From: Escherichia coli
Lineage (GTDB): Bacteria > Pseudomonadota > Gammaproteobacteria > Enterobacterales > Enterobacteriaceae
NCBI RefSeq assembly: GCF_003334255.1
Contig: NZ_QOWU01000050.1
Direction: 5' to 3' (one strand)
DNA: 42,065 nucleotides
The translations under genes and the position numbers were made by a program. The notes under the pieces were generated by a model, which was not told the DNA's origin, did not search any database, and worked only from the letters and a program-made list of their open reading frames with translations. Position 1 is the first letter of the stretch, and each line of letters begins with the position of its first letter. Shown here in pieces: positions 6,440 through 8,722 of this stretch.

Positions 6440-8722
6440 TTACATAGATTGAGTGAAGGTACGAGTAATAACGTCCTGCTGCTGTTCTTTAGTCAGCGAG
6501 TTGAAACGTACTGCGTAGCCAGATACACGGATGGTCAGCTGCGGATATTTTTCCGGGTTTTCCATCGCGTCGAGCAGCATTTCACGGTTCATCACGTTAA
6601 CGTTCAGGTGCTGACCACCTTCGATGGATGCTTCGTGGTGGAAGTAACCATCCATCAGACCAGCCAGGTTGGTCTTACGAACTTCGTCGTCTTTACCCAG
6701 TGCGTTCGGAACGATAGAGAAGGTGTAGGAGATACCATCTTTAGCGTAAGCAAACGGCAGTTTAGCAACGGAAGTCAGAGAGGCTACTGCACCTTTCTGG
6801 TCACGACCGTGCATCGGGTTAGCACCCGGTCCGAACGGCGCGCCAGCACGACGACCGTCTGGGGTGTTACCCGTTTTCTTACCATACACAACGTTAGAAG
6901 TGATGGTCAGAACAGACTGAGTCGGGATAGCGTCACGGTAGGTGTGCAGTTTCTGAATTTTCTTCATGAAACGTTCTACCAGGTCAACAGCCAGGTCATC
7001 TACACGCGGATCATTGTTACCAAACTGCGGGTATTCGCCTTCGATTTCGAAGTCGATAGCCAGACCGTCTTCGTCACGAATCGGTTTAACTTTCGCATAT
7101 TTGATTGCAGACAGGGAGTCAGCAGCAACGGACAGACCAGCGATACCACACGCCATGGTGCGGATAACGTCACGGTCGTGCAGCGCCATCAGAGAGGCTT
7201 CGTAGCTGTACTTGTCGTGCATGTAGTGGATGATGTTCAGTGCAGTGATGTACTGTTTAGCCAGCCAGTCCATGAAGTGATCCATGCGCTCCATCACTTC
7301 ATCATAGTTCAGGACATCGCCTTTGATCGGTTCAGACTTCGGACCAACCTGCATTTTCAGTTTTTCGTCAACGCCGCCGTTGATTGCGTACAGCATGGTT
7401 TTCGCCAGGTTTGCACGCGCACCGAAGAACTGCATTTGTTTACCAACGATCATCGGGCTTACGCAGCAAGCAATAGCGTAGTCATCGTTGTTGAAGTCCG
7501 GACGCATCAGGTCATCGTTCTCATACTGCAGAGAAGAGGTGTCGATGGACACTTTAGCGGCGAATTTCTTGAAGTTCAGCGGCAGTTTTTCAGACCACAG
7601 AATGGTCATGTTCGGTTCCGGAGACGGACCCATGGTGTACAGGGTGTTCAGGAAACGGAAGCTGTTTTTGGTAACCAGGGTACGACCGTCGAGGCCCATA
7701 CCACCGATAGATTCGGTTGCCCAGATCGGGTCGCCAGAGAACAGTTCATCGTATTCCGGAGTACGCAGGAAGCGAACCATACGCAGTTTCATGACCAGGT
7801 GGTCAACCATTTCCTGCGCTTCTTGTTCGGTGATCTTGCCAGCTTTCAGGTCACGTTCGATGTACACATCCAGGAAGGTGGAGGTACGACCGAAGGACAT
7901 TGCAGCACCGTTCTGAGACTTAACAGCAGCCAGGTAGCCGAAGTAAGTCCACTGGATAGCTTCCTGAGCGTTGGTAGCCGGACCAGAGATGTCGTAGCCG
8001 TATTTCGCAGCCATTTCTTTCATCTGACCCAGAGCGCGGTGCTGTTCAGCGATTTCTTCGCGCAGACGGATAGTCTGTTCCAGGTTTACGCCGTTTTCCA
8101 GATCAGCCTGCAGAGAAGTGAACTGTGCCAGTTTGTCTTTCATCAGGTAGTCGATACCGTACAGCGCAACGCGACGGTAGTCACCGATGATACGGCCACG
8201 GCCATATGCATCTGGCAGACCGGTCAGAACACCAGATTTACGGCAACGCAGGATGTCCGGAGTGTAAACGTCGAACACGCCCTGGTTGTGAGTTTTACGG
8301 TATTCAGTGAAGATTTTTTTGATCATCGGATCCAGTTCGCGGTTGTACGCTTTGCAGGAACCTTCGATCATTTTGATACCACCGAACGGGATAAGAGCAC
8401 GTTTCAGCGGAGCTTCAGTCTGCAGACCAACGATTTTCTCAAGCTGCTTGTTGATGTAGCCAGCGTCGTGAGAGGTGATGGTGGAAGCAACAGCGGTGTC
8501 AAAGTCAACTGGCGCGTGAGTGCGGTTTTCCAGTTTAACGCCTTCCATTACTTTGTCCCACAGGGTGGTGGTCGCTTCAGTAGCGCCAGCCAGGAAGGAC
8601 TCGTCACCCTCGTACGGAGTGTAGTTTTTCTGAATGAAGTCACGGACGTTTACTTCATTCTGCCAGTCACCTTTGGTAAAACCTTCCCAGGCTGTGGCTA
8701 ACTTTTCATTAAGCTCGGACAT
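6440..8722 (-). CDS. pflB: pyruvate formate-lyase (formate C-acetyltransferase 1)
   Basis: 760-aa ORF; glycyl-radical signature RVSGYAV near the C-terminus and active-site Cys-Cys (AIACCVSPM) are present in the translation. Confidence 0.97.

Follow-up and report, generated by a model that had tools for sequence, protein, structure and literature searches.

Long open frames antisense to pflB and rpsA of Escherichia coli are almost certainly passive products of codon bias

The window analysed here, meaning the whole stretch of 42,065 nucleotides of an Escherichia coli contig, contains pflB and rpsA, and opposite each of these genes the other strand stays open over a long distance. The identity of both genes is well supported, as the 760-aa minus-strand ORF exceeds the cut-off of the NCBIfam equivalog TIGR01255 (PflB; 1463 bits vs 994) and the plus-strand ORF at 17163..18836 that of NF004951 (ribosomal protein S1; 1187 bits vs 918). 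Around pflB (positions 6300-8800) the DNA matches several complete E. coli chromosomes at 100% identity and occurs in 5,426/5,426 complete E. coli genomes; in the E. coli records that were sampled, the annotation of this interval comprises pflB and focA only. The features referred to below are these:

6440..8722, minus strand: pflB coding sequence, formate C-acetyltransferase, 760 codons plus stop (NCBIfam TIGR01255)
6449..8701, plus strand: shadow ORF opposite pflB (anti-pflB), 750 codons, TTG start, from the ORF list
6440..8698, plus strand: stop-free stretch opposite pflB, 753 codons
6437..6439, plus strand: in-frame TAA that bounds this stretch upstream, just outside pflB
8699..8701, plus strand: TAA that ends the anti-pflB ORF, complement of the sole TTA of pflB (Leu8)
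17163..18836, plus strand: rpsA coding sequence, ribosomal protein S1, 557 codons plus stop (NCBIfam NF004951)
17199..18338, minus strand: shadow ORF opposite rpsA (anti-rpsA), 379 codons, GTG start, from the ORF list
17202..18857, minus strand: stop-free stretch opposite rpsA, 552 codons
18354..18350, minus strand: Shine-Dalgarno-like (SD-like) AGGAG, 11 nt upstream of the anti-rpsA GTG at 18338, a long spacing

The 750-codon frame that an earlier note on this DNA had flagged opposite pflB is thus present in the ORF list where that note placed it, and so are the end points of the 379-codon frame that it gave opposite rpsA. The extent of the latter, however, was set too short, because it had been counted only from the first GTG; the stretch that is really open measures 552 codons, and upstream of the GTG at 18338 it holds no further ATG, GTG or TTG. 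Both antisense ORFs lie at register offset 0 to their sense gene, codon for codon (frame -1), and because of this register every antisense stop requires a TTA, CTA or TCA in the sense gene. The openness is confined to this register: frame -1 of pflB has 1 stop as against 29-54 in each of the other four alternative frames, frame -1 of rpsA has 1 as against 10-53, and 8/8 of the window's antisense ORFs that reach 150 aa fall in frame -1.

How unusual is it for a gene to leave its opposite strand open in this way? The earlier note had proposed counting the three codons concerned, and the counts are indeed very low: pflB has a single TTA (codon 8) and neither CTA nor TCA among its 760 codons, and rpsA likewise has a single TTA (codon 13) and neither CTA nor TCA among 557, whereas the remaining 29 window genes have 25.5 of them per 1000 codons. 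When the actual amino-acid sequences are combined with the codon usage of these 29 genes, 14.5 antisense stops are expected for pflB and 10.4 for rpsA, and the probability of finding none is 1.5e-7 and 1.3e-5, respectively. Relative to an average gene, the openness opposite both genes is therefore highly non-random. Under the codon usage of ribosomal-protein genes the expectation falls to 3.1 stops for pflB and 2.2 for rpsA, the probability of at most one stop becomes 0.18 and 0.35, and that of a run at least as long as the observed one becomes 0.049 for pflB (752 codons) and 0.12 for rpsA. The value of 0.049 is not remarkable given the hundreds of highly expressed genes, and since pflB is more codon-biased than the average ribosomal-protein gene, the length of its run is unremarkable.

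Are the three codons avoided on account of the stops that they create on the other strand, or simply as part of a general preference? In pflB, non-preferred codons whose complements are not stops are just as scarce (TTG 0, AGT 0, TCG 1), and 56/62 leucines are encoded by CTG. Moreover, in the 79 pflB orthologs described below, taken together, TCA (196) outnumbers TCG and AGT combined (130), from which it follows that TCA is not specifically avoided. The depletion in pflB is general codon bias and not avoidance of stops. The same picture emerges from a codon-adaptation index that was calibrated on 31 ribosomal-protein genes of MG1655 and from which the Leu and Ser codons were left out. By this index pflB (0.828) and rpsA (0.819) stand, like tufA and rplL, highest of 114 genes, and among the 83 non-reference E. 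coli genes it predicts the fraction of TTA, CTA and TCA (Spearman rho = -0.64, p = 1e-10). Long frame -1 runs are found in other genes as well:

rpoB: longest open frame -1 run 991 codons
rpoC: longest open frame -1 run 844 codons
adhE: longest open frame -1 run 605 codons
fusA: longest open frame -1 run 528 codons
tufA and tufB: frame -1 entirely open, 394 codons

The openness is thus common to the other highly biased genes that were tested and is lost in a weakly biased homolog, tdcE. This pflB paralog of the same genome, whose product shares 79.5% amino-acid identity with PflB, has 8 antisense stops, and its longest run is limited to 267 codons.

Another way of approaching these frames, also put forward in the earlier note, is to ask whether the antisense frame is conserved in its own right, apart from the sense frame, and it is not. 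The pflB set drew one locus from each of 80 Enterobacterales species, with protein identities of 89-100%; 79 of these loci are complete. From codon 9 onwards the frame has no stop in 17/79 of these orthologs, whereas the other 62 carry up to 20 stops each, spread over 85 codon positions. Interruptions are seen even in species as close to E. coli as Citrobacter youngae, Enterobacter cloacae M-7 and Klebsiella indica. The TTA at codon 8, which ends the frame in E. coli, is found in 57/79. A conserved sub-ORF within the anti-pflB frame was also considered and rejected, as the longest interval that is stop-free in all orthologs is just 47 codons, with few Leu or Ser positions in it. Of the nucleotide differences among the orthologs, 80% fall at the third position of the sense codon, the first of the antisense codon. 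Compared with E. coli, amino-acid identity averages 0.934 in the sense frame, 0.707 in antisense frame -1 and 0.685-0.688 in the unconstrained frames -3, +2 and +3, so that the hypothetical anti-pflB protein diverges as an unconstrained frame does. Variation within the species is of the same kind: among 67 variant pflB codons in five E. coli genomes, 62 are synonymous in the sense frame and 4 in the antisense frame.

For rpsA, a degenerate N-terminal pattern applied to metagenome contigs gave 62 distinct orthologs. In the nearest relatives the antisense frame stays open; it contains 2-6 stops in orthologs at ~90% nucleotide identity, and reaches 33-47 stops in low-GC3 taxa as against 0 in one high-GC3 taxon; openness opposite rpsA thus tracks codon usage rather than ancestry. 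Judged from these comparisons, neither the open frame nor the sequence that it encodes is conserved beyond what the sense constraint imposes, in pflB and rpsA alike.

Do the antisense frames at least carry the signals expected of genes? The claim that both lack any start context holds for anti-pflB, which contains no ATG at all and whose 14 GTG and 3 TTG codons have no SD-like motif 3-13 nt upstream of any of them. It does not hold for anti-rpsA, where AGGAG precedes the GTG at 18338. This AGGAG is the complement of codons that specify HLSDISW, a conserved peptide of an S1 domain, and it is because that sense peptide is conserved that the motif is identical in 31/42 rpsA orthologs of equal length. 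Neither ORF has a sigma-70-type promoter-like site in its surroundings on its own strand (for anti-pflB, the plus strand over 6000-9000), and there is no -10 hexamer with at least 5/6 matches to TATAAT on the plus strand inside pflB. Neither translation matches an NCBIfam family, and a Pfam scan of anti-pflB gave no domain at E <= 0.001. The anti-rpsA ORF nevertheless turns up, by exact look-up, in public protein databases as a 'putative uncharacterized protein'. The description of the products as low-complexity needs correcting, in that they are compositionally skewed and not strictly low-complexity (entropy 3.88 bits vs 4.17 for PflB). They are rich in V, F, T, R and Q, contain no Met and almost no K, P or W, and they are so because they are the complement of the favourite sense codons, with CTG giving Q, GAA and AAA giving F, GAC and AAC giving V, and GGT and CGT giving T.

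Could either frame, of 750 or 379 codons, nevertheless be a genuine overlapping gene translated from an antisense mRNA, as has been proposed in EHEC and Pseudomonas? We regard this as exceedingly improbable. What speaks for it is a length far above the expectation from average codon usage (P ~1e-7), the AGGAG upstream of the anti-rpsA GTG, the fact that some annotators deposited the anti-rpsA ORF as a protein, and the long antisense overlapping genes that are claimed for E. coli and P. aeruginosa. Among these, pop opposite ompA (PMC7103648), ano (PMC5960689) and olg1/olg2 (PMC8850804) are likewise ORFs embedded antisense in annotated genes, and ompA is highly expressed, like pflB and rpsA. The candidates of E. 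coli O157:H7 and P. aeruginosa have experimental support, however; they were nominated from RNA-seq and Ribo-seq signal and come with promoters, some of them also with phenotypes or purifying selection. Unlike them, the pflB and rpsA frames have yielded no start context beyond the motif just discussed, no promoter-like site, no conservation and no entry in the available survey tables. Among E. coli surveys of embedded antisense ORFs with translation, that of Zehentner et al. 2020 (bioRxiv 10.1101/2020.11.18.388249) is the most permissive; its available supplementary tables, consulted by gene name, locus tag and product, list a small antisense candidate opposite the neighbouring focA and nothing opposite pflB or rpsA, which is supportive but not conclusive. 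Against an overlapping gene stand, above all, the breaks at scattered positions in 62/79 pflB orthologs and in many rpsA orthologs, and an antisense protein that evolves as an unconstrained frame. For anti-pflB there is in addition the lack of an ATG, of an SD-like motif, of a promoter-like site and of a protein-family match in the searches given above, and the same openness recurs in all the other strongly biased genes that were tested and disappears in tdcE. On the strength of these comparisons, a conserved full-length antisense product is effectively refuted. The open frame might alternatively be a relic of ancient complementary or RNY-type coding, a notion that PMC3454372 attributes to Merino et al. 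1994 and to which we assign the same negligible likelihood. The preferential openness of frame -1, here and genome-wide (Mir et al. 2012, PMC3454372), speaks for such a relic, but openness follows present-day codon bias and GC3 and not ancestry: the tdcE paralog has its 8 stops, the rpsA orthologs range from 33-47 stops at low GC3 to 0 in a high-GC3 one, and close relatives gain and lose stops in pflB freely.

A separate matter is whether any antisense RNA is made at pflB. Raghavan, Sloan and Ochman 2012 (PMC3419515) list just 17 genes, pflB being one of them, in which an antisense transcript starts at the same position in E. coli and Salmonella; for pflB the read depth is 79 and 214. From this published start it follows that some antisense RNA is made somewhere inside pflB. 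The start, reported in a study of pervasive antisense transcription, is nevertheless an observation at the level of RNA that neither requires nor explains a 750-codon frame. It has no bearing on the origin of the frame, but it leaves a small opening for antisense RNA biology at pflB. One may imagine that a shorter conserved antisense transcript is functional, either as a cis-antisense regulator or as the mRNA of a short peptide, with the long frame being incidental, yet this is decidedly unlikely. The authors themselves judge most such asRNAs to be non-adaptive products of spurious promoters; the depths that they give correspond to modest expression; the plus strand inside pflB has no hexamer with at least 5/6 matches to the TATAAT -10 consensus; no stretch longer than 47 codons is free of antisense stops across the orthologs; and such a transcript would leave the 750-codon frame unexplained anyway. 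A little less probable still is that ribosomes initiating at GTG or TTG codons on the pflB antisense RNA translate a long lineage-specific polypeptide, for want of any stop in frame -1, or shield the RNA from Rho termination. If true, this would amount to a means of regulating pflB or to a protein of very recent origin.

The long antisense frames opposite pflB and rpsA are, almost certainly, passive shadow ORFs that result from codon bias and not overlapping genes. Both genes are highly expressed and rank with the most codon-biased of E. coli. Translational selection favours codons read by abundant tRNAs. Nearly all Leu in both genes is CTG and nearly all Ser TCT, TCC or AGC, and a usage of this kind leaves one 5'-proximal TTA and no CTA or TCA, and hence an opposite strand that is open almost gene-wide. 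Selection acts on the sense codons. There is no sign that a promoter of its own drives transcription of the antisense frame, that ribosomes translate it or that selection keeps it, and we infer that it is not expressed. At 6440..8722, pflB is the real gene, and it is its codon bias that creates the opposite open frame. The earlier note had named the codon bias of two highly expressed genes as the most economical cause, and the codon counts, the control codons, the index and the orthologs all bear this out. The phenomenon is already known, and the case is a textbook shadow ORF. According to the account in PMC3454372, long frame -1 ORFs were first described by Merino et al. 1994 (NAR 22:1903), and their origin in codon usage was argued by Silke 1997 (Gene 194:143). 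Mir et al. 2012 (PMC3454372) then modelled ORF lengths in E. coli, and the usage of the ~5% most highly expressed genes turned out to yield long frame -1 ORFs statistically. The frames described here share with those of Silke, Merino and Mir the codon-for-codon antisense register, the location opposite highly expressed, biased genes and the depletion of TTA, CTA and TCA. There is no material difference; the 753-codon stretch of pflB is a long example, and those of rpoB (991) and rpoC (844) are longer.

What, then, is the significance of these frames? If the anti-pflB frame were truly coding, a 750-residue protein residing within a central fermentation gene would be remarkable, but the comparative data exclude a conserved product. 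The case matters mainly as a negative result, in that the length of an antisense ORF alone is no basis for nominating overlapping-gene candidates opposite highly expressed genes. Since the anti-rpsA frame has entered public databases as an 'uncharacterized protein', shadow frames of this kind are a source of spurious annotations.

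Besides the two long shadow ORFs, i.e. the stop-free frames lying antisense to pflB (6449-8701, + strand) and to the ribosomal protein S1 gene rpsA (17199-18338, - strand), the window contains six additional antisense ORFs of 153-294 aa:

Antisense ORFs in frame -1, the codon-for-codon antisense frame
29448-30332, - strand, opposite the long ORF 29487-30809
31518-32345, - strand, opposite the long ORF 31494-35954
35169-35903, - strand, opposite the same long ORF, 31494-35954
23031-23588, - strand, opposite the long ORF 21789-23537
10835-11371, + strand, opposite the long ORF 10040-11833
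13646-14107, - strand, opposite the long ORF 12821-13909

That all six occupy frame -1 illustrates that, of the alternative frames of this genome, it is as a rule the most open one. Such frames also find their way into databases: by exact look-up, the 379-aa anti-rpsA sequence is present in public protein collections within a cluster of 70 members, including CEE05140.1 (‘putative uncharacterized protein [Escherichia coli]’) and UniRef100_A0A376VKZ7, both of which are spurious entries. The same exact look-up in these collections returned no entry for the 750-aa anti-pflB sequence in its exact form.

What has been reported of antisense activity around pflB and focA? Raghavan et al. (2012; PMC3419515) report an antisense RNA start inside pflB (within 6440-8722, + strand), its position being the same in both E. 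coli and Salmonella. Zehentner et al. (2020; bioRxiv 10.1101/2020.11.18.388249) describe a family of candidate ORFs, detected by ribosome profiling, antisense to focA (EDL933 1170774-1170896); the candidate given at these EDL933 coordinates corresponds to window positions 8967-9089 (+ strand), a 40-codon open frame ending in TAA.

The 3' end of pflB (~6452-6622), where the C-terminal glycyl-radical domain is encoded, shares ~80% nucleotide identity with grcA, and in an NCBIfam profile search this domain region also matched the GrcA models. Both matches reflect the already known relationship between PflB and GrcA. Beyond this end lie two predicted elements:

Predicted elements downstream of pflB
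6401-6429, - strand, promoter-like site in the gap separating pflB from the ORF that follows it downstream (5508..6275, - strand)
6297-6316, + strand, terminator-like hairpin near that site

This promoter-like site may serve the downstream ORF.

Codon counts revealed that both pflB and rpsA, whose codon bias is extreme, carry a single TTA, in each case close to the 5' end: codon 8 of pflB (8699-8701) and codon 13 of rpsA (17199-17201). The former is TTA in 57 of 79 Enterobacterales orthologs, and the latter, in a comparison of rpsA orthologs, in the majority of close relatives. Codon choice near start codons is relaxed or AT-preferring, and the conservation of a rare, AT-rich early codon in two highly expressed genes would be in line with such relaxation or AT-preference near starts.
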